This document shows, in pieces, positions 3,391 through 15,221 of a stretch of DNA of 64,000 nt. Source of the stretch: an uncultured Actinomycetes bacterium. Lineage in GTDB: Bacteria; Actinomycetota; Thermoleophilia; RBG-16-64-13. The notes beneath the pieces are model-generated. The model was not told where the DNA came from. It was given only the letters and a program-made list of their open reading frames with translations, and ran no database searches. Position 1 is the first letter of the stretch. Each line of letters starts with the position of its first letter. A program made the position numbers and the translations under genes. The stretch is taken from assembly GCA_963706025.1 (NCBI GenBank), contig CAVPLM010000005.1, positions 672,001-736,000 on the forward strand, in the 5' to 3' direction.

Positions 3391-3465
3391 ATAAAAGCGC
3401 TCATACTTTTTCGTTTGAGTGCATAGGGCGGGCCGGGCGAGCGGAGTCCGGGCTGTTATCCACGA

Positions 3466-3545
3466 GAAGGGCAAACCCGTCGTAAGGCGGGGACGCAAAA
3501 CCATCGGTCCAGTCTATTGGTTCCACTGGGCGGCCGGGTTGCCGG
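3466..3545 (+). ncRNA. c-di-GMP-I (GEMM) riboswitch
   Basis: GGCAAACCCGTC-GTAA-GGCGGGGACGCAAAACCATCGGTCC...GGGCGGCCGGGTTGCC matches the GEMM consensus; an alternative hairpin CGGCCGGGTTGCCG/CGGCACCTGGCTG followed by a T-run (3531-3574) overlaps the aptamer 3' strand. Confidence 0.85.
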
Positions 3546-3740
3546 GATTTCGGCACCTGGCTGCTTTTTGTTTCTGTACGGCCTCCCTTTGGGTCTTCGG
3601 TCGATTGGAGACACTCAGGCCGCGGACTGCTGTTCTGTCCCAGATCGGTCAGAAGCGGGGGAGGTGCTGCTGTTTGATCAACTGCTCTCTGAGTTTCACA
3701 AGCGCCAGCGCAAGAAGAAAGAAGAGAAAAGAGGATCGAC

Positions 3741-4436: not shown

Positions 4437-5336
4437 ATGCAAAAGCCACTGATCTACCTGGGCTTCGGAGGAGGCGTGGGGGCGGCCGGGCACCGGGCGT
4501 TTCTCGCTCTCTCCCTTCAGGATTGGGAGGAGCCGAGCGTCAAGCCGGCTCCTCCCCCCTCTCACCCAGTGCCGACAAGAAGCACGCAATCGGAGCGAAC
4601 GCGCGGACGATGGTGGAAGCTCCTGTCACACGTCGCCACCGTGTTCCTTGTCCTGGTCCTGTGTTTCGTTGTGGCCGTCGGGTATGGACTTCTCGACAAC
4701 CGCTGGTATCACGTTCTGGCTGTAGACGGCGGCTCGATGCAGCCGACGATCGACTGGGGTGACCTCATAGTCATCACAAAAGCTCCCAAAGAGCTGAAAC
4801 CGGGCATGATCGTGACCATGCAGGTCAAGGACAAGATCGTAACCCACCGGGTGCTGCAAGTGGACCCGCTGGTGACTCAAGGTGATGCCAATGGCGCTCC
4901 GGACACGTGGAAGCTGGAGGACGTGCGAGTTGTCGGTGTGGTCCGGTTCTGGGTCCCGAAGTTGGGCCGAATGCTGGAGAACGTGCACCTCACCGCATCG
5001 GCATCCGGTGCTTGGTTCCGTCGCAGCGAGGGGGTGTCTGGTGAGGTGAGTGCAGGCCATTGGGAGGTTACAGAAGAAGAAACGACGGGGACGGCCGACG
5101 CTGTGCTGAATCCGGACACCACATTGTCAACCATGGAGTTGCCAGCCGAACGAGCGCCCGACGCTGCGGGCGGAGATTCACCTCCGGTCAGCACGGTGGT
5201 CATCGACTCGAGCGAGCCGGCACCACCGCCAGACACTGAGACGACGACCGGCTCGTCTGAGTTCACGACCACGACCGTCGAGCTGCCGCCGGACCCGCTG
5301 ACCACCCCTACAGGCGCGACGACTCCCACGAGTTGA
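4437..5336 (+). CDS. sipW: SipW-like (ER-type) signal peptidase I with a Thr/Pro-rich C-terminal tail
   Basis: TM segment, then GGSMQPTI..GDL, IVTHRV, TQGDAN..D motifs; true start may be downstream of 4437. Confidence 0.75.
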   Translation: MQKPLIYLGFGGGVGAAGHRAFLALSLQDWEEPSVKPAPPPSHPVPTRSTQSERTRGRWWKLLSHVATVFLVLVLCFVVAVGYGLLDNRWYHVLAVDGGSMQPTIDWGDLIVITKAPKELKPGMIVTMQVKDKIVTHRVLQVDPLVTQGDANGAPDTWKLEDVRVVGVVRFWVPKLGRMLENVHLTASASGAWFRRSEGVSGEVSAGHWEVTEEETTGTADAVLNPDTTLSTMELPAERAPDAAGGDSPPVSTVVIDSSEPAPPPDTETTTGSSEFTTTTVELPPDPLTTPTGATTPTS

Positions 5337-5627
5337 CGACCAGCCGAAGTTAATGGCGGCCGCTGCAGCGGGACATCGCTGCGCCCACGATTCCCCAGCG
5401 AGAGAGACGGCCCCTTCTTGACCTGACAAGTGCCTAGTCGAACACGACAGCATGAAGCCGTTCTGGATTAAGAAGTGGCACCGACTGCAATGGCAGCCCT
5501 TCAACGAACTCCCACCCCGCCAACTCCAGCAGACACCCCTCCAGCCCCTGGATGACCGTCTCCCTGCTGATCGAGGCCGCGATCAGAAGGGATTGGAACA
5601 ACTGCTGACCGGCGCCTTTGGGCGTCT

Positions 5628-5865
5628 GATGAAGAACCTGGAACTCCCCCCGGTCCGCTTTCACGATCTCCGGCATGGGCACATCACCCATCTGCTGCTG
5701 AGGGGGGTGCCATTCAAGGTAGCAAGCGTCCGGGTGGGACACTCAGGGGCTGCGATCACCGCAGATCTGTACGGGCGCCTTCTCCCCGGTGCCGATGAGC
5801 AGGCCGCGGCGAAGATGGACGATGCCTACTGGCCCAAACCCCGTGCGGCAGTCGACGGCAGCTGA
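5628..5865 (+). pseudogene. C-terminal remnant of a tyrosine recombinase/integrase
   Basis: RFHDLRHGHITHLLLRGVPFKVASVRVGHS...TADLY (box II plus catalytic Tyr); N-terminal and core domains absent; abuts a tRNA-Leu fragment. Confidence 0.85.
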
Positions 5866-5953
5866 AAGTCGTGCGGCAGTCGTGCGGCCACCGGGGCAAA
5901 ATGGATTGCATGCACATGTGAACAAAAGCAGAAAAACGCTGGAAATCACCATA

Positions 5954-6004
5954 TGCCGGAGGCGGGACTCGAACCCGCACGGGCATAGCCCTACGGTGTT
6001 TAAG
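5954..6004 (-). repeat. tRNA-Leu(TAA) 3' fragment, att-like copy 1 (51 bp)
   Basis: Identical to the 3' part of the tRNA at 20432-20513; identity ends exactly at the 5' edge of the anticodon loop. Confidence 0.95.
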
Positions 6005-6156
6005 TTGGAACCCAGCGTTTGTTCTCGTGCGCGGTCGGGCGCGGCAGGGTGCGGTGATGCTCAGGTGTTGGCTGCAACACTGGGCAAAAGCCACCATCCT
6101 GCTGCGCACCCGCGTACTGTCGTGTGCAGTCGTTTGCGGTGGGGTGCGTGCATGTC

Positions 6157-6190
6157 GGGTGGCAACTGGGTGGCAGCTGGGTGGCAATTG
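6157..6190. repeat. Three 11-bp direct repeats GGGTGGCA(A/G)(C/T)T, putative integrase arm-type sites
   Basis: gggtggcaact gggtggcagct gggtggcaatt; the reverse complement resembles TTGCCACC in the Ser-site flanks. Confidence 0.55.
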
Positions 6191-6244
6191 AGAGCCCCCG
6201 CTGGCAGCGCTGGTAGCGGCCAATCGGGGCAAGAACAGCACACG

Positions 6245-6274
6245 GGAGCGGAGGCCCCTAAGGGCCTCCGCTCC
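6245..6274 (-). terminator. GC-rich hairpin downstream of 6338-7066
   Basis: Perfect 13-bp stem ggagcggaggccc/gggcctccgctcc; no clear U-tract. Confidence 0.55.
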
Positions 6275-6337
6275 TCGTCTCTGCCTCGTCGTATCCGAGC
6301 GAGGGTACGGATCGCGGTGGACCGATCCTAGAAGCTG

Positions 6338-7066
6338 TCAAAAGTCCGGGGTGCCCACATGCACCTTGATGTCGCCTTTGAAGAACGGGACGGGATCGTC
6401 CGGTACGTTCATCGGATACCAGAGCCAGGGGGTTGCGGGGTCTGTGGGGTCCCCCGCGGGGACGAATGACCAGGCCATGAATACGTCGTTCCCTTTCCAG
6501 GGCTTACCGAAGTCTAGGAGAACATACCTGAGAGGCATCGAGTCCGGGAAGAGCGGAAGCCACTCCGGCGGCAGTTGGTCGGCCGGCACGTACACCACGA
6601 AGTCGGCTATGTCGGCCTCCGCGAAGGTAGCGAAGCTCGATGGTGGCGATGGCGGGTCTGTCCACCAGTACGTGGGCCACAGCGTGGCGGGGTAGGCCGC
6701 ACCGTGACAGAAATACGCTTGGCTGAGGCTTGGCAGCCCACGCGCAGCCTGGAACGCATCCCAGTACTCGGACTCGAAGCTCCTGCTGCTAAAGCGGTAT
6801 GAATACTCTCCGGCCTTGCCGATGGACTTGTCCAGGTACGTGCCCCTCACGGTTCCGTCCTGCAGTTTCTGCACATGGATCGCATCCATCGTCCAAACAG
6901 GGAGGTCGTCGGTTGGGCTACACAGGAAGCTGGCCGAGACCCAGTTCACCGGCTTCCCGCAGTCCGATCCTCCCGGAGTGGCAAACGCCACTCCGGGCAC
7001 GACGAGCAGCACGACGAGCAGGATGACGGCGAACGCGACTGGAAGTAGTGGTTTCTTGGCTTTCAT
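6338..7066 (-). CDS. Secreted hypothetical protein
   Basis: SD GAGGAGG, ATG at 7066, signal peptide MKAKKPLLPVAFAVILLVVLLVVPGVAFA. Confidence 0.7.
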   Translation of the reverse strand: MKAKKPLLPVAFAVILLVVLLVVPGVAFATPGGSDCGKPVNWVSASFLCSPTDDLPVWTMDAIHVQKLQDGTVRGTYLDKSIGKAGEYSYRFSSRSFESEYWDAFQAARGLPSLSQAYFCHGAAYPATLWPTYWWTDPPSPPSSFATFAEADIADFVVYVPADQLPPEWLPLFPDSMPLRYVLLDFGKPWKGNDVFMAWSFVPAGDPTDPATPWLWYPMNVPDDPVPFFKGDIKVHVGTPDF

Positions 7067-7230
7067 GACGCGCACCTCCTCCTCGGGCAGGATCGGTGTC
7101 CGTACGGAGCGATGCGCGGGCGATACGCTCGTGCGAGGCCCCGTCTTCACGGCCTCCCCGAGCTATAAGTGGGGACAGTCACTTGGTCCCCGTATAGATT
7201 CAGTATAGGCCGGTTTTGACTCTGGGTCAA
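7067..7230 (-). promoter_or_regulatory. Repeated promoter plus structured 5' leader, copy 1
   Basis: TTGACC-N17-TATACT, 5' hairpin GGGGAC..GTCCCC, SD; near-identical to 12688-12853 and 13281-13445. Confidence 0.8.
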
Positions 7231-7331
7231 CAAGGGAGAAAAGAGCCCCCAGCGGCCAAGCGGGTACGCTACCGAAGGGGGCTCTCCCCCATGCTGGGCC
7301 GACATTGTCCGGGGCTCTTCTCCCCCGGCCA

Positions 7332-7598
7332 TCATTCACCATCGTCTGAGGTGGCCTCCTTCTTGGGGGCGATGGTTTTGCGGGCATCGACGGCCTTCTG
7401 GGTGCGCTTGTCCCGCTCCTTGGGAGTGTCCCGTCGCCGCTGCTGGAGGAACTCTTGGAGGTCAGATTCCAGGACCACCCAACCCTCGCCGATGGCCGTA
7501 CCTCGGATCTTGCCCTCGAGTATCCAGGTCTTGATGGTAGACGGCTCCTGGTCGAGCATGCTGGCTACCTTGTCTATGGTGTACGGGGTGTCTAGCAT
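7332..7598 (-). CDS. Excisionase-like (HTH_17/MerR-type) DNA-binding protein
   Basis: YTIDKVASMLDQEPSTIKTWILEGKIRGTAIGEGWVVLESDLQEFL matches the Xis-like HTH pattern. Confidence 0.75.
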   Translation of the reverse strand: MLDTPYTIDKVASMLDQEPSTIKTWILEGKIRGTAIGEGWVVLESDLQEFLQQRRRDTPKERDKRTQKAVDARKTIAPKKEATSDDGE

Positions 7599-7873
7599 GG
7601 CGGTCACGGCCTCCGCTTCTGGGTGTGCTGCCTATGTACTACCACCTTCGCGTCCGATTTATGTAGGTCTACGCGTATTGTACGAACCCGGTCTCCCACT
7701 GGCGGGCGTTTGCGGTAGACGGGGTTGGGGTATTTGGAAACCAGCCCTCGTAGGACGAGGGTATGCAGGGTGGGGTAAGGCGAGGCACGAGTACGTGTCT
7801 CGCTTTCGTTGTTCTGGAAGCGCCATGAGCCCCCGCCGGCCAAGCGTGCCAACAGGCATTGGATCACCCTGAG

Positions 7874-7927
7874 TTGGACGATGCCTACAAACTAGGGCCG
7901 CAGCCTGCGGCAGTCACCAGGAACTGA
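7874..7927 (+). pseudogene. Last 17 codons of a second related integrase
   Basis: LDDAYKLGPQPAAVTRN* versus MDDAYWPKPRAAVDGS* at 5815-5865; same following gtgcggcagtc repeats and same position relative to a tRNA-Leu fragment. Confidence 0.6.
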
Positions 7928-8016
7928 GGAGCCGTGCGGCAGTCGTGCGGCAGTCGGCCTGGATCGGTAGGGTAAGAGCGTTGGGCATGAACAGAAAAGT
8001 CCTGCAAAACCCTATA

Positions 8017-8041
8017 TGCCGGAGGCGGGACTCGAACCCGC
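8017..8041 (-). repeat. tRNA-Leu(TAA) 3' fragment, copy 2 (25 bp)
   Basis: tgccggaggcgggactcgaacccgc identical to the tRNA 3' end. Confidence 0.9.
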
Positions 8042-8269
8042 GAGTGCATGGCTGCACTATTGGCTCCGGTGGCGTCTGGAGAGATCGTCGCCGAGTCAAC
8101 GGTCGTTCCCATCGCGCCGGCCGCCCGATCTCCCAACGGCGCGTCGTTAATCCAAACGGTATTGGGACTGACCCGCTCGTCGAGCAGCTAAGGGAACCCT
8201 TTGGGCAGGCCGATAACTATCATCGTACTGGCCCGCGAGGTTGTTCGCCCCGCGTCGGGAGCCGAGCCG

Positions 8270-9340
8270 ATGGCGGACACTGCGACCAGAGGAGAGACCT
8301 TGACCGCGCGCGAATCGAAAGACACCCGCCGTCACCATATCCGCTGGTGGTTGCTGGCGCTGATCGCCCTGGTGGTGCTTGTGCCCGCTGGTATTGCGGC
8401 ATACCTGGTCAACAGGGAGCCCCCGGAACCGATCTATCTGGCATTCGCGATCACAGCCGATGGAACCGCCGTCGAACTTGGCACCCGGGGGACGGACTGG
8501 CACACGGCCACGGACATCAACGCCGATGGAACTGTGGTGGGAGTAGCCGCGGGGACCGACGGCGCGATCCACGCGTTCCTCTCCCGGGGCGGGACCTTAA
8601 CCGACCTCGGTGCGTCCCGCTACCCCAAGGCGATTAACGACACCGGGCAGGTCCTGGTCGCCAACATGGACCCGGCCCCGGACGGGTGGCAGCCGATCCT
8701 GTGGACCGAGGGAGTGGCGCGCGAACTGACCTCCAACCTTGGCCCCTTGTACGAGGCCAATGACTTGGACAAACAAGGCCTGGTGGTCGGGGAGATCGTC
8801 GCCGCTCCCAAGTCCTACGCCTGGCCCATCGAGGACACCGATCGCCCCACGGGTCCCATCGGGGTCCTTTGGGAGAACGGCCGGGTGACCCTGCTCGAAA
8901 CCGCTGACGCCATGCTGACGCGCACCGTCCGCATCAACGAGGCCGGGACGGTCCTGGGCCAGGGGCGCGTCAAGGGCTCATGGCCGAACCATATCCTCCT
9001 GTGGCAGGCTGGCAGCATTACCGACCTGGGAATAGGCCAGGCCATCGGCATGAACGATCATGGGCAGATCGTGTTGCAGAAGCCGAAGGACAACGACCCG
9101 GGCGAACCTACCCTCTCCTACCTCTGGGAGGCTGGGCGACTCACCCCCCTGAGCAACGCGGACGGCTCCAACCTGCGGCCCTACGACATCAACGGCTCAG
9201 GCCTCGTCGTCGGTCAGATAGACGACAAGGCAGCGTTCTGGCAGAACGGGCGCGTAACCCTCCTGGATCTGCATTCGAAGAACAGCTGGGTCGCCGCGAT
9301 CAGCGACGCGGGGACGATGGTGGGGACGCGGCAGAAGTAG
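8270..9340 (+). CDS. Membrane-anchored HAF-repeat extracellular protein
   Basis: N-terminal TM; repeats ATDINADGTVVG...HAFL...LTDLG, AINDTGQV, DINGSGLVVG. Confidence 0.75.
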   Translation: MADTATRGETLTARESKDTRRHHIRWWLLALIALVVLVPAGIAAYLVNREPPEPIYLAFAITADGTAVELGTRGTDWHTATDINADGTVVGVAAGTDGAIHAFLSRGGTLTDLGASRYPKAINDTGQVLVANMDPAPDGWQPILWTEGVARELTSNLGPLYEANDLDKQGLVVGEIVAAPKSYAWPIEDTDRPTGPIGVLWENGRVTLLETADAMLTRTVRINEAGTVLGQGRVKGSWPNHILLWQAGSITDLGIGQAIGMNDHGQIVLQKPKDNDPGEPTLSYLWEAGRLTPLSNADGSNLRPYDINGSGLVVGQIDDKAAFWQNGRVTLLDLHSKNSWVAAISDAGTMVGTRQK

Positions 9341-9509
9341 GGCTATGGAGCTCGTCGGATCAAGGGTTCGGCAGGAAGACCGCCGTTCATCCTCCAGCAG
9401 ATGCCGCCGTCAACTCCCGGTACGGCCTTCTGCGACCCTCGCGCTGAGCGCGCAACGCGGTCTGCGCGGACTCCCCACTCGGGCAAGAACGTCCTGCCAA
9501 TCAACGACA

Positions 9510-9561
9510 TGCCGGAGGCGGGACTCGAACCCGCACGGGCATAGCCCTACGGTGTTTAAGA
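9510..9561 (-). repeat. tRNA-Leu(TAA) 3' fragment, copy 3 (52 bp)
   Basis: Identical to the tRNA 3' part through the anticodon loop. Confidence 0.95.
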
Positions 9562-10014
9562 GATCGGTCCGGCGTCCGGCGGCGGCTGCCCAGTGTGCAT
9601 GGATACCGTCTTGTCCTGCCGGAATACCGCTCTTGTGATGGGCTGGGATAGGCAGTCCGGTGGCAGTCCGGGGAGTTCGTCACCAGAATGTCACCAAGAG
9701 CAGCCGGCCGGGGTCTGGCCACGGGCCTATCGGACCGGTTTTGAAGACCGCGGGAGCGAACCGCTTCACACGGCGCGAAACGCTCCGAAGCAGCGTCTCC
9801 ATAGGTCCGTCACCAGGCGCAACGCCTTCTCCCATTCTAACGCGTGCTCTCCCGACGTCACCGAGGACGGCAGAAGGACGGCAACGGGTCGGTAGAGGTA
9901 GCCAAGATCGATGCCGCTCTCGGCGACAGCCATAGGGGGTAGCAGCCGATTTCTGCCTCGGCTCTCCGTGGTCAACACTGGGCCCGATCACACCCAGACC
10001 GGAAGGAGCCTCCC

Positions 10015-10254
10015 ATGGCCAAGACCTACAAGCTGACCGAGAGCCAGATCCCCGAACGCCGGAGCCAGAGCCTCTACGCGGACATTATCGCCGACTTCAT
10101 CGCGCAGGGCGCCGAGTCCATGCAGGTGACCATCGAGGGGATGAAGCCCGCGACCCTGCGGGCCGGGCTGCGACGGGCGCTCAAGGGCAACGAGGACGTG
10201 AAGATGGCGCAGAGGGGTGAGGAAACGTTCCTGCTGAGGCAGAAGACGGAGTAG
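10015..10254 (+). CDS. Small hypothetical protein
   Basis: SD GGAAGGAG, GC3-biased codons, 79 aa. Confidence 0.6.
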   Translation: MAKTYKLTESQIPERRSQSLYADIIADFIAQGAESMQVTIEGMKPATLRAGLRRALKGNEDVKMAQRGEETFLLRQKTE

Positions 10255-10291
10255 CCCTTACCCCGGCCGAGACCACGATAGGGAGGGTGAC

Positions 10292-10531
10292 GTGAGACCT
10301 GAGACACTAGACCGTAACGACCCCCGCAACAGCTTTGTGTTCGACGGCATCCCCATGTGCTGGGTCTGCTACTGGTACGTTGGCGGCATGACCTGCCGGG
10401 CGTTCGGGCTGATGGAGCCGATCCCCGACGAGATCATGAGCTTCGGCTTTGACCACCGCGACCCTTACCCGGGTGATAACGGCAGGCGGTTCGTTCCACA
10501 TGACGCGGATCCACCGCCAGAAGACTGGTAG
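10292..10531 (+). CDS. Small Cys/His-motif protein of a phage-associated type
   Basis: CxxC...C-RAF...IPDEI...DHRDPYPGDNG.RF; SD GGGAGG. Confidence 0.55.
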   Translation: MRPETLDRNDPRNSFVFDGIPMCWVCYWYVGGMTCRAFGLMEPIPDEIMSFGFDHRDPYPGDNGRRFVPHDADPPPEDW

Positions 10532-10643
10532 AGGGCATGGCACAAGAGGACGGGGGCCCCGAAGACCGCCGTCCCGTTCACCAATGCTCTTGGCAGTCGT
10601 TCCTACTGGTTCAGCCAGATCGTGCAAGCCCCAGACTAGACCG

Positions 10644-10960
10644 TCACTCCTTCCAGATGGCGCCCGAGTACTGCACCCCTCCCTCGTCAGCCCAGGTGCC
10701 CTGTCCCTGCAGGCCCTTCAGGCCCCCAGTCGCGTTGATGACGGTCCACTCGCCTCCGAACCAGGAGCCGTCATCCGGCTGGAACGCGGTGAGGCGCAGG
10801 TCCAGGCCACCGTGGGTGCCGTTCACGTTTGCGTCCTCGAAGTGGATCCACAGCATCGCCCACATGGCCGAGCAGCCGGCGGGGAGCCACGCTACGAACG
10901 GCTCCTTCGAGAAGCCTCCGAAGGTCCCGGTCCACGTCACCGTCTGTAGCCGATGTAAGG
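10644..10960 (-). pseudogene. C-terminal part of a beta-rich exported-type protein, 5' end missing or frameshifted
   Basis: WTGTFGG...GEWTVINATGGLKGLQGQGTW...YSGAI with coding-like codon usage; no convincing start. Confidence 0.4.
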
Positions 10961-11001
10961 AAGAGCCGCCGGTCCAGCGTCCTCTTGGCCCATCTCGTTT
11001 A

Positions 11002-12687
11002 CTACCCAATTCCACTTGCCGGAGACCTCTGTGGATCCCGGGGTGCGCGCTCGTCGACACGGGCGGCGATGGACGCGATCGCCTGCACGAACGCGGGGCT
11101 CACGAGCTGACCCGAGTTCCACCGTGGCCTGCCGCAGCAGCTTGGTGCCTGCCTCGCCTAGGATCTTGGGAGCCTTCGAGTTCACGTTCGTCTTCATCTC
11201 TTCGATGACCTTGGTCTCGGCCTCCAGGAATGCGGCCAAGTGCTTGTACGCGTCCTCGGAGCCGGCAGGGGCCTTCATCCCGGCGGCGCGTTCTGTGGCC
11301 GCCTCAATGGTCGTCTGCCGCCCAGGCGAAGTCGTCCTTGTCGGTCTGCGACCAGTCCGGGTAGCGCAAGACGCGTGGAGGAGATCTTGGCGTGGGCCGG
11401 GCTGAGGTTCCTCGACCATCATGACGTCCAGCTCGGTCTTGGTGGCCGGGACGGTGGTGGTCGTCGTAGAGGACGCGACAGAGCGTCGGGCCTGTTGTGC
11501 CGGCCGGCTGGAGCTCGGTCCAGGTGTTGGCGGCAGGGTCGTAGGCCCAGGTATCGTCGAGGTACGGCGGCGTCCGGCGTTCCCGAGGGACAGGATCATC
11601 CTCTTGCCGTCCGGATCGTAGACCATCGCAGCAGCCGAACCGCGCGGAAGGCAGGCTGCCGGCAGGCTTGAGCTCCGTCCAGCTGTTGGCGGCCAGGATC
11701 GTAGGCCCAGGTATCGTTGAGATAGGCGCTCATTGGATCTTCCGGAGCCCCCGTGATGCCTCCAAAGAGAAACATCCTGCCGCTTGCTGGATCGTACGCC
11801 GCGCAGTTTGCGACACGCGCAAGAGGGCCCGCTGCCCGCAGGAGGGAGTTCGGTCCAGGTGTTGGCGGCAGGGTCGTAGGCCCAGGTGTCGTCGTAGGAC
11901 TCGCCCGTACCTCCGACCCTCCAAAGAGAATCATCTGGCCAGTGGCCGGATCGTAGACCATGGGAGTGGCCGTTGCGCGCGGACGGCACGCTGCCGGCGG
12001 GCTTGAGTTCGGTCCAGGTGTTGGCGGCGGGGTCGTAGGCCCAGGTGTCGTTGACGCTGGTGCTCGTGATCGGCGTCCGAGCGCCTCCGAAGAGGATCAC
12101 CTTGTCGGTGCCCGGGTCGTAGACCATGGCGTGGGCAACGCGCGCAGACGGCAGCGCTGCCGGCGGGCTTGAGCTCCGTCCAGGTATTGGCGGCAGGGTC
12201 GTAGGCCCAGGTGTCGTTGAAGTAGGTGCGGGGATCGAAAATGTCTGCAGCCCCTCCGAACATGAGCATCCTACCGATCGGCGACGTCGTAGACCATGCG
12301 AGGAAAGGCGCGGTGCCGAGGGCACGGTCCCGGTAGGATCGAGTTTGGTCCAGCTGCAGGCGGCAGGGTCGTAGGCCCAGGTGTTGTCTTTCGCACCGCG
12401 AGGAGTCCATTGGCCTCCGAAGAGGATTACCTTTGCGCTGGCCGGGTCGTACACCATGGCAGAGGGCCATCGCGATGGCAGGAGGCGGCGGCCGCGGTGG
12501 TCAACCGTGTGGCCGTGGTCACCGGCTTGGGTCGTGGATGGTCACGGGGCTCAGCTGAGTGGTGGTCACGGCCTGGGTGGTGGTTGTCTCTTCGCCGCCA
12601 CAGGCTGACGCAACGAGTGTGATGGCGAGCAGCACGAATAGAGTGAGAGCGACCAGAAGCACAAGGAGCGGTCTTCTCGGCTTTCAT
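11002..12687 (-). CDS. Kelch-repeat lipoprotein (many frameshifts)
   Basis: About 6 repeats MVYDP..KVILFGG...NDTWAYDPAANTWTEL across frames; Thr-rich linker; ATG at 12687 behind leader copy 2. Confidence 0.75.
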
Positions 12688-12853
12688 AGGACGCGCACCT
12701 CCTCCTCGGGCAGGATCGGTGTCCGTACGGAGCGATGCGCGGGCGATGACGCTCGTGCGAGGCCCCGTCTTCACGGCCTCCCCGAGCTATAAATGGGGAC
12801 AGTCACTTGGTCCCCGTATAGATTCAGTATAGGCCGGTTCGACCCTGAGTCAA
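12688..12853 (-). promoter_or_regulatory. Repeated promoter plus structured 5' leader, copy 2
   Basis: TTGACT-N16-TATACT; nearly identical to copy 1. Confidence 0.8.
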
Positions 12854-12983
12854 CGAGGAATAGGAGCCCCCGTGGCCGAGCTTGGAACCGGGGGATAAGA
12901 ACGGAGGCCCTGAAGGACCTCCGTCGTTCCGAAGCGACACCACGTCTGATTACTGACCTGCGGACCCTCCGCTAGGCGTTCTC

Positions 12984-13280
12984 TCACAGGACAATCAGGC
13001 GACGGTTGACAGGATCAAAGGCCAGCCTTGTAATCATTGATGAAGGCCCCGAAGGGTATCCCGAGGTCATGACAATAATGGGCGTAGAAAGGAGCATGTG
13101 CTCGCCAAGGTTTCGCCACACACCCGTTTCTCCCGGTATCTCGCCCGGAAGCAGCGCGTTCGTGGATTTCATCATCTGGCCCCAGGCATTCGGAGGATGC
13201 GACGCCCCGGCCAGGGCTGGCACAGACAACGCCAGGAGCAGGACGCCAGTAATGATGAGGACAGCCAGTAACTTGCGCAT
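12984..13280 (-). CDS. Small secreted hypothetical protein
   Basis: SD GAGGAGG, signal peptide MRKLLAVLIITGVLLLALSVPALA. Confidence 0.65.
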   Translation of the reverse strand: MRKLLAVLIITGVLLLALSVPALAGASHPPNAWGQMMKSTNALLPGEIPGETGVWRNLGEHMLLSTPIIVMTSGYPSGPSSMITRLAFDPVNRRLIVL

Positions 13281-13445
13281 GCGAACGCACCTCCTCCTCG
13301 GGCAGGCTCGGTGTCCGTACGGAGCGATGCGCGGGCGATGAGGCTCGTGCAAGGCCCCGTTCCGGCGGCCTGTCCGAGCTATAAATGGGGAGAGTCACTT
13401 ACTCCCCGTATAGATTCAGTATAGGCCGGTTCTTCTGAGCGTCAA
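13281..13445 (-). promoter_or_regulatory. Repeated promoter plus structured 5' leader, copy 3 (diverged)
   Basis: TTGACG-N16-TATACT; 5' hairpin GGGGAG..CTCCCC (compensatory change versus copies 1 and 2). Confidence 0.8.
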
Positions 13446-13533
13446 TCGAACGAATCTCGATAAGACGGGGTTGCAGGGGACGACCATTCTGCTGCGTAGC
13501 ACGTTTGCGTCCGTCCCAAGTCCCGTTGACTGC

Positions 13534-13691
<158 letters not shown>

Positions 13692-13981
13692 GGCTCTCGT
13701 CGTAGGTCCGGTGCGGGGTATCGAGTGTGCATAGATACCGTTCTGTGCGGCGGGAATACCGCTTTGGTGGTGTCCTGTCCGGTGAGCACCGGGGAGTCTG
13801 CCACCAAGATGGCACCAAGATCGGGCGGCAGGGCTCATACGAGGGGAATGGCGGCATAGAGCGGGTAGTGGATGCCAATGGCACTGAACTGGGCCCGGCG
13901 GAGGAAATGTGTGCCCACGAACAAATGGCAGCTGGCCGAGCTCCGGCCACTGGGTCGGACGAGACCGTATGTATGGGATGG

Positions 13982-15140: not shown

Positions 15141-15221
<81 letters not shown>

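Follow-up and report, generated by a model that had tools for sequence, protein, structure and literature searches.

A promoter-linked, structured 5' leader motif as a candidate expression cassette in an uncultured order of Actinomycetota

The window analyzed here is a 64,000-nucleotide (nt) stretch of DNA from an uncultured member of the Actinomycetes (assembly GCA_963706025.1, contig CAVPLM010000005.1, positions 672,001 to 736,000). It contains three copies of a unit of ~165 bases, all on the minus strand, in which a promoter is joined to a folded mRNA leader. The same unit recurs in front of unrelated genes in other genomes of the order, and three parts of its predicted fold, namely, the hairpin P1, the inner part of P2 (P2b and P2c), and the outer helix of P3, covary above the controls. 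With a probability of a little under 60%, we take the unit to be a lineage-specific promoter and 5' untranslated region (5' UTR) expression cassette of this uncultured order, which probably ensures coordinated, high, and stable expression of the genes behind it.

Three copies of the element in the window

A repeat search of the window identified a single direct-repeat family with three copies of ~160 nt, at positions 7070-7229, 12694-12853, and 13286-13445 (copies A, B, and C, respectively). In a MAFFT alignment of the three minus-strand stretches, they share a -35 element, TTGAC, a spacer ending in CGGCC, a -10 element, TATACT, and the hairpins P1 and P2, as well as an invariant block, ATCGCCCGCGCATCGCTCCGTACGGACACCGA, the sequence CCTGCCCGAGGAGGAGGTG, and the Shine-Dalgarno (SD) sequence GAGGAGGAGG. 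Copies A and B have a P1 of GGGGAC..GTCCCC, whereas in copy C it is GGGGAG..CTCCCC, and all three retain the loop AAGTGACT; this alignment displays both the compensatory change and the identical core that had been noticed in a preliminary description of the region. The copies are 88 to 96% identical, and the similarity between A and B extends into the first codons (MKA(K/E)K..). A scan of positions 5900-13700 for sigma-70-like consensus sites returned 4 sites, compared to 1.2 +/- 1.0 in shuffled sequences, and the best three of them (10 of 12 letters; spacers of 17, 16, and 16 nt) are exactly those of copies A, B, and C. The three ~165-bp minus-strand elements with TTGAC-N16/17-TATACT promoters, initially proposed from inspection of the DNA, are recovered at the same positions by the repeat search, the alignment, and the promoter scan. 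All three leaders fold better than dinucleotide-shuffled sequences (z scores of -2.2 to -2.8; 2 to 4 of 200 shuffles equal the leader), and copies A and B also contain a long-range complement, CTCGGGCAGG/CCTCCCCGAG (10 nt, 90%). The parts of the copies are as follows, with the start site near 7195 being a prediction from the promoter sequence.

7202..7230, minus strand, copy A promoter: -35 TTGACC at 7230-7225; 17-nt spacer ending in CGGCC; -10 TATACT at 7207-7202
7067..7195, minus strand, copy A leader: predicted start near A7195; P1 at 7191-7171; P2 at 7163-7127; variable 3' domain at 7121-7085; SD GAGGAGGAGG at 7084-7075
12826..12853, minus strand, copy B promoter: -35 TTGACT at 12853-12848; -10 TATACT at 12831-12826
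12688..12819, minus strand, copy B leader: P1 at 12815-12795; P2 at 12787-12751; SD at 12707-12698; ATG at 12687-12685
13418..13445, minus strand, copy C promoter: -35 TTGACG at 13445-13440; -10 TATACT at 13423-13418
13281..13411, minus strand, copy C leader: P1 at 13407-13387 (GGGGAG/CTCCCC); P2 at 13379-13343; SD at 13299-13290; ATG at 13280-13278

A conserved leader peptide was also considered. It was ruled out because the only upstream in-frame stretch contains an indel of 1 nt that distinguishes copy A from copy B.

Phyletic distribution of the motif

Two covariance models were built, R1 from 20 leaders and R2 from 65 leaders with a hand-set structure. The family surveyed makes up the whole order and comprises 61 genomes in 19 genera. 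In this set, R2 (cutoff, E of <=1e-4) yields 97 matches in 28 genomes and 9 genera, with 10 matches per genome at most. Among the high-quality genomes of the family, 13 of 33 carry the motif. The genome from which the window comes (3.66 Mb in 30 contigs, 92% complete, 7% contaminated) has 10 covariance-model matches; nhmmer finds 8 full copies in it along with partial ones, which keep the promoter and P1 alone or, in some cases, also P2. Outside the family, a sample of the class gave matches in 2 of 125 genomes, both of them weak (40.3 and 24.8 bits). The promoter-P1 pattern is found in 10 metagenomic contigs, all of which are also positive with the model (7 of them at >86 bits), and has no matches in viral contigs. 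A 19-nt pattern from the SD block proved unspecific, with the element present in 4 of the first 100 loci (18 further loci fall outside this count). Full-length copies are present in four named records, all metagenome-assembled genomes of uncultured Actinomycetes or Actinomycetota.

Across the 9 genera, the motif is retained at ~70% identity. In a tree of the leaders, those of the DUF3303 genes, the SRPBCC genes, and one group of lipoprotein genes each cluster across genera, which indicates that the association between leader and gene is old and has been maintained. Leaders of unrelated genes from the genome of the window (A, B, C, and others) group together at 88 to 96% identity; therefore, copying or homogenization has also occurred recently.

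Evidence for conserved base pairing

Pairing was evaluated against slid controls, in which the 3' partners were moved by 1 to 3 columns. In a MAFFT alignment of 65 leaders made without regard to structure, 74.9% of the cells form standard pairs, compared to 33.9 to 51.0% in the slid registers, and the covariation score is 0.168, compared to 0.074 to 0.092; none of 500 shuffles reaches the observed values. A model-fitted alignment of 78 distinct leaders, which leans towards the structure supplied to the model, has 75.7% of its cells paired (35.2 to 57.1% in the slid registers), with changes on both sides in 30 of 36 pairs. Because alignment cells are not independent events, compensatory events were counted by Fitch parsimony on a FastTree tree of the leaders, which was built from the same columns as those counted.

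All 36 pairs: 59 compensatory events (slid controls, 15-31)
P1 inner: 7 (slid controls, 0-4)
P1 outer: 13 (slid controls, 2-9)
P2a: 2 (slid controls, 0-3)
P2b: 11 (slid controls, 0-5)
P2c: 7 (slid controls, 0-4)
P3 outer: 11 (slid controls, 2-8)
P4: 4 (slid controls, 1-6)

P1, the inner part of P2, and outer P3 exceed their controls, and the covariation that had been anticipated for a larger alignment is present at 59 tree-aware events. The counts for P2a and P4 fall within the control range, and these two helices are therefore without covariation support. P2a hardly varies, with 88.8 to 91.5% of its cells paired.

Anatomy of the leader

In 79 model matches, the promoter stands at a fixed distance from the leader. 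Each letter of TTGAC is conserved at 87 to 96%, the spacer is 17 nt long, the CGGCC ahead of the -10 element is conserved at 75 to 90%, and the -10 element has the form TAtAcT. P1 begins 4 nt past the start that is predicted from the -10 element. The leader then consists of the following parts.

P1 inner: GGGGAG/CUCCCC, with a loop of 7 to 9 nt
P1 outer: CUAUA/UAUAG
P2a: CUCGG/CGAG
P2b: GAGGCC/GGCCUC
P2c: short apical helix
Junction: GCCCGCGC
P3: C-rich hairpin with the outer helix AUCG/CGAU, or CUGG/CCAG in one lipoprotein group
P4: CGCGC/GCGCG, bracketing the SD region
SD: GAGGAGGAGGUG, 6 to 10 nt ahead of the start codon

The 5' half, with the promoter, P1, P2, and the junction, is common to all copies, whereas the 3' half varies by gene family. 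An SD-like GGGGAGG within P2 is variable (GGGAAGG, GGACAGG, and GGGCUGG). The leaders of four DUF3303 loci (L152, L018, L019, and L022) contain, ahead of the real SD, a CCUCCGGAGG that is self-complementary and two copies of a GGAGGUCG motif.

Genes downstream of the leader

The three genes behind the copies in the window are the following.

6338..7066, minus strand, gene A: 242 amino acids; signal-peptide-like N-terminal segment MKAKKPLLPVAFAVILLVVLLVVPGVAFA; no Pfam family (Pfam scan begun at a GTG three codons upstream)
10937..12687, minus strand, gene B: lipoprotein gene with Kelch repeats, spread over at least three reading frames
12984..13280, minus strand, gene C: 98 amino acids; signal-peptide-like N terminus; no Pfam family

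Proteins A and C are unrelated beyond their signal-peptide-like N termini (BLASTP E value of 0.31). The Kelch hits behind copy B lie in three overlapping open reading frames (ORFs). The ORF that starts at ATG 12687 has no signal peptide, and a lipoprotein signal (..LVASAC GGEE..) was seen by eye in the +1 frame after the first few codons; gene B is either a pseudogene or a product of assembly indels. Thus, the original view of three unrelated exported proteins holds for A and C, whereas protein B has its signal in the +1 frame only. Intact leader-linked Kelch lipoproteins are encoded at two other loci (L183 and L189). Some other leader-linked ORFs look shortened (L175, L149, and L016), which could reflect gene decay or assembly indel errors.

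Of the 79 model matches, 61 have an SD at their end and, behind it, an ORF of at least 50 codons in one orientation. A Pfam scan of 61 distinct downstream ORFs of at least 50 amino acids gave the following assignments.

SLH domains: 4 ORFs
Kelch propellers: 2 ORFs
WD40, PQQ_2, PD40, beta-helix, SGL, rhodanese, Ig-like domain, and TIG/SASA: 1 ORF each
DUF3303 (~90 amino acids): 5 ORFs
Polyketide_cyc2/SRPBCC (~150 amino acids): 4 ORFs
Radical-SAM hit below the cutoff: 1 ORF
No family: 37 ORFs

Most of the 37 proteins without a family, as judged by eye and not with a predictor, have either a basic-then-hydrophobic start or a lipobox followed by Thr-rich linkers, and an MKAKKPLL.. N terminus is common to many leader loci. 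As far as such features can tell, the module would drive mainly envelope or secreted proteins, plus two cytoplasmic-looking small families. The presence of the latter, DUF3303 and SRPBCC, argues against a mere "signal-peptide duplication block." No metabolic, transport, or signaling theme that would point to a ligand is seen among the 61 downstream ORFs.

Putative terminator hairpin and upstream flanks

A rare terminator-type hairpin, GGAGGNCC-N3-6-GGNCCTCC, is found behind genes A and C; its loop is usually of the UUCG type, and GTTCTT follows the stem.

6250..6269, minus strand, hairpin after gene A: GGAGGCCC-TTAG-GGGCCTCC, 71 nt past the stop codon
12903..12922, minus strand, hairpin after gene C: GGAGGTCC-TTCA-GGGCCTCC, then GTTCTT, 64 nt past the stop codon

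These are the only two matches in the 64-kb window, where none would be expected, and both are behind leader genes. The whole genome has 7 matches, 3 of which lie directly behind full-length leader genes. Among leader ORFs with enough downstream DNA, 17 of 54 are followed by the hairpin within 700 nt, at 29 to 78 nt from the stop codon in 10 cases, 162 nt in one, and 337 to 408 nt in six. The stem, of 8 to 10 bp, resembles that of P2b (GAGGCC/GGCCUC). With its GTTCTT.. tail, the hairpin is not listed by a simple terminator scan because it has fewer than 5 T's in 8 positions. Its presence behind 17 of the 54 genes implies that the unit is a whole expression cassette, complete and monocistronic, with conserved flanks and a varying ORF. 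The gene C hairpin lies 50 nt upstream of the -35 element of copy B, which makes C and B a tandem pair of cassettes.

Three more hairpins in this genome (C6:19265, C8:46264, and C11:102523) are located 0.4 to 2.5 kb beyond partial nhmmer matches to the promoter and P1, which are weak (E values of 0.005 to 0.35), and may belong to diverged or decayed cassettes. At the DUF3303 loci L152, L018, L019, and L022, the terminator hairpin is located 339 to 408 nt past the stop codon instead of 30 to 80 nt, which points to the presence of another small gene on that transcript.

A subset of the copies is preceded by a conserved large hairpin, GCCCCC..CGGYNGC..CCAAGCYTNGCC..GGGGGCT, with a T-rich tail. 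Copy A belongs to this subset.

7234..7326, minus strand, upstream hairpin: nested inverted repeats and a T-rich tail, just upstream of the -35 element of copy A

Copy C (13446-13600, minus strand) and the copy at C11:72362 (L004:1250-1500) are alike over ~100 nt upstream of the -35 element. This second type of flank, ..GGACGCAAACG..CAGAATGG..CCCCTG.., is also found before the leaders of L016, L007, L008, and L172, and in the window it reaches one of the tRNA-like fragments described below. Integron attC sites have a core-site consensus, RYYYAAC ... GTTRRRY, which flanks an imperfect palindrome at cassette ends; no R''/R' cores of this kind were seen by eye in the flanking hairpins (no attC model run).

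Proposed role of the module

The favored reading, an expression cassette of this lineage, would combine a near-consensus housekeeping-type promoter (TTGAC-N17-TATACT, with CGGCC ahead of the -10 element), a structured 5' UTR of ~130 nt, a very strong ribosome-binding site, and, in about one-third of the cases, a very stable terminator hairpin. If transcription begins a few bases ahead of P1, each transcript would open with a G+C-rich hairpin, and P1 and the terminator hairpin might protect the two ends of the mRNA. The invariant letters of the leader go beyond the needs of a stabilizer, suggesting a shared trans-acting factor, for which P2, in which the CUCGG/CGAG base is invariant and unpaired letters are conserved, would be the likeliest recognition site. 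Such a factor might co-regulate the 5 to 10 monocistronic module genes per genome, mostly for cell-envelope or secreted proteins, which would then constitute a regulon, while the gene-family-specific 3' part of the leader would set translation. We infer transcription from the predicted start, action as RNA, mRNA stabilization, and the common factor from the features described above.

Several observations weigh against this reading. In the R2 scan, the motif is absent from 33 of the 61 genomes of the family, and the terminator hairpin is found at 17 of the 54 leader genes only. Strand-specific signs of an RNA are weak. Over all pairs, there are 234 G-U cells and 196 A-C cells, with a lean to the sense strand in P4 (64 versus 18) and P2a (14 versus 5) only; the counts for P1 (23 versus 28) are blurred because a loop of 7 nt and one of 9 nt are both compatible with this hairpin. 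The sense strand folds at -55.2 kcal/mol and its reverse complement at -54.4 kcal/mol, with the sense strand better in 46 of 78 leaders (p of 0.17). In the model-fitted alignment, outer P1, P2c, and P3 have just 56 to 67% of their cells paired, which is partly due to misalignment. The invariant P2a and the CCUGCCCGAG block carry no covariation information and are needless for a pure stability role. Finally, the start site and transcription itself are predicted from the promoter-like sequence.

A bolder reading, which we regard as speculative and rather unlikely, is that the leader represents a new class of RNA that responds to a signal; it would be either the target of a dedicated RNA-binding protein or a riboswitch whose ligand might be a second messenger. 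Together with the promoter and the look-alike terminator, which would give the mRNA a GAGGCC/GGCCUC stem at either end, it would form a plug-in cassette that recruits arbitrary genes by recombination into one cell-envelope regulon.

Alternative explanations

Four other explanations were weighed, in order of decreasing weight: a ligand-sensing riboswitch, DNA-level operators, neutral hitchhiking, and a miniature inverted-repeat transposable element (MITE), which is essentially excluded. As a riboswitch, P1, P2, and the junction would be the aptamer, and the ligand would choose between P2a and a long-range helix next to the SD and thereby control translation. The leader does have a conserved structured domain with covarying helices (P1, P2b/c, and outer P3) and conserved unpaired letters in P2; its conserved 5' half and gene-family-variable 3' half resemble an aptamer and an expression platform, several copies per genome precede diverse surface and secreted proteins, as in cyclic di-GMP (c-di-GMP) regulons, and no Rfam family matches it. 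Moreover, the 5' strand of P2a has two conserved partners that exclude each other, one in P2a itself (88.8 to 91.5% of the cells paired) and the other in the long-range stem CUCGGG.AGG/CCU.CCCGAG (~81%, compared to <=59% when slid). However, this stem, which figured in the preliminary description, stands up as conserved complementarity and not as a covarying helix: its 5 compensatory events are within the control range of 0 to 5. Pairing of the C-rich strand of P3 with the SD (74.6%) is no better than in slid registers (up to 78.8%), nor is an extended P4 (72.9% versus 70.9%). The GGAGG of the SD has an unpaired probability of 0.23, compared to 0.25 with the upstream sequence shuffled, and is less accessible than that in 37 of 66 leaders. 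Thus, the SD-sequestering pairings are conserved complementarity only, and a translational switch is no more than a possibility. A conserved promoter at a fixed distance is unusual for riboswitches, neither metabolism nor transport emerges as a theme of the downstream genes, and the motif is restricted to one order, all of which make a ligand-sensing riboswitch improbable. The first proposal had joined a portable expression module with a riboswitch-like leader; the former part is supported by the unrelated genes behind the motif and its presence in 28 of 61 genomes, whereas the latter draws no support from the downstream genes, which lack a metabolic theme, or from the ordinary SD access.

A comparably low probability is assigned to DNA-level operators, whereby P1 and/or P2 (about +5 to +70) would bind a transcription factor and the RNA fold would be incidental. 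Such operators would account for the fixed spacing between promoter and P1 in nearly all 79 matches, the conserved CGGCC of the spacer, the partial copies that retain just the promoter and P1 and sometimes P2, the equal sense and antisense folding energies, and the lack of a G-U over A-C excess in P1 or overall. However, the compensatory changes in the arms keep pairing and not sequence (GGGGAC/GTCCCC, GGGAAG/CTTCCC, and GGAGA/TCTCC), of which a protein that reads the sequence would have no need, the loops between the arms vary from 7 to 9 nt, and at least three consecutive hairpins that run into the SD are more in keeping with the leader of an mRNA than with an array of operators. It is still harder to see the motif as a neutral passenger, that is, a block of promoter, 5' UTR, and signal peptide copied by duplication or recombination in island-like regions, with a functionless fold. 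The near identity of the window copies (88 to 96%, reaching the first codons in A and B), their location among integrase and excisionase remnants and repeated tRNA 3'-half fragments, and the decayed or frameshifted look of several downstream genes would all fit, but not the preservation of pairing at ~70% identity over 9 genera, with 59 compensatory events versus 15 to 31, the co-clustering of leaders with orthologous genes across genera, or the non-secreted families behind the motif (5 DUF3303 and 4 Polyketide_cyc2). The end of an insertion sequence (IS), or a MITE with an outward promoter, is largely refuted: multiple copies, some of them truncated, in a region with mobile-element remnants would be expected, but 61 of the 79 matches point one way into an SD and an ORF of at least 50 codons, viral contigs have no matches, and no Rfam or IS-related family was hit. 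The preliminary description had raised an IS or MITE end as a competing identity, and it was rejected because no terminal inverted repeats common to the three window copies were found.

Comparison with known families and systems

When the whole window was searched with Rfam 15 at gathering scores, no family matched the element; a search of positions 6900-7400 at an E value of <=10 returned only chance microRNA and small nucleolar RNA hits of <=17 bits, and six divergent loci had no hits at an E value of <=0.1. These covariance-model searches agree with the initial impression that the element is not a known riboswitch. The element is not described in the literature searched (supplements outside the search), which covered actinobacterial RNA motifs located ahead of genes for signal-peptide proteins, and a literature search on DUF3303 found nothing. 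In the libraries and searches used, the element is thus undescribed, and it represents a new candidate cis-regulatory leader motif.

Stem-loops of the ompA type are 5'-UTR stabilizer hairpins of highly expressed envelope genes. According to a review, the 5'-UTR stem-loop of slpA stabilizes the transcript and exposes the ribosome-binding site (PMC10221546). The Lactobacillus slpA leader is like the element in having a strong promoter, a long 5' UTR that opens with a stable stem-loop, S-layer or surface genes, and a strong ribosome-binding site. Unlike the slpA- and ompA-type leaders, the element has a single leader sequence that precedes many unrelated genes and is kept from genus to genus, with further conserved hairpins, invariant blocks, and often a specific terminator; in its case, stabilization would be deduced from the fold.

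The upstream homology box (UHB) of the Borrelia erp/ospE/ospF genes, reportedly described by Marconi et al. in 1996 and in later papers, is said to combine a conserved upstream region and leader peptide with differing mature lipoproteins in many copies. UHB genes are located on prophage plasmids and regulated by DNA-binding proteins. A shared upstream region and leader peptide with a divergent mature protein is found here as well, yet incompletely, since signal-less proteins are also included. In contrast to the UHB, the element has covarying hairpins in the predicted transcribed leader and also precedes cytoplasmic-looking genes.

Regulons of the c-di-GMP-I (GEMM-I) riboswitch have several copies per genome upstream of varied surface or secreted proteins without an assigned function. 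The element, however, has no score to RF01051 or RF03167, its architecture is different, and the conserved unit includes the promoter. The lysM-Actino and NLPC-P60 motifs are orphan structured leaders of Actinobacteria, which were discovered by alignment upstream of cell-envelope genes and have no known ligand. Unlike these, the element matches no Rfam model, is fused to a promoter, and is confined to a single uncultured order. The STAB-SD of cry3A from Bacillus thuringiensis is an SD-like, ribosome-binding sequence, whereas the SD-like GGGGAGG in P2 of the element is not conserved as such. As a 5'-UTR determinant of mRNA stability, the STAB-SD is combined with a 3' stem-loop in engineered expression cassettes, which the element resembles (PMC8309801).

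The element belongs to none of the families compared, be it stabilizer leaders, the UHB, or second-messenger riboswitch regulons. Being welded to a promoter and paired with a dedicated terminator are uncommon features of a leader motif, and the joint travel of promoter, 5' UTR, and terminator as a cassette is an unusual arrangement. If the favored reading is correct, the module would define a regulon of surface, secreted, and small uncharacterized proteins in a lineage known from metagenome-assembled genomes only, offer a first handle on envelope control in these organisms, and add an RNA motif that no library holds. The compact unit of strong promoter, stable UTR, strong ribosome-binding site, and terminator could serve as an expression part for high-G+C hosts, and a ligand-sensing leader would be a new riboswitch class. 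The reach of the motif is limited, as it is confined to an uncultured order and the mechanism is so far a proposal.

Genomic setting of the window copies

Two sets of repeated fragments, one at 5948-6004, 8011-8067, and 9504-9560 and the other at 13618-13676 and 15163-15221, resemble the 3' halves of tRNA genes (T-arm and acceptor); ARAGORN and Rfam call no full tRNA at these positions. Two ORFs lie beside these fragments, one for a truncated Phage_integrase (5452-5862) and one that is HTH_17 excisionase-like (7335-7607). The three leader copies thus appear to lie in a mosaic of degenerate integrated elements whose att-like sites are repeated. ARAGORN also reports a 94-nt "tRNA-Pro (agg)" at 7718-7811 on the plus strand, which the Rfam tRNA model does not confirm at the gathering score; this call is probably spurious or a fragment.

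A c-di-GMP-I-GGC/c-di-GMP-I riboswitch is found at 3461-3547 on the plus strand (62.4 bits, above the gathering score), ~0.9 kb upstream of a gene for an S24-like peptidase (4437-5333). The genome encodes three c-di-GMP-I/-GGC riboswitches in all, with the other two at C4:57170 and C19:32475.

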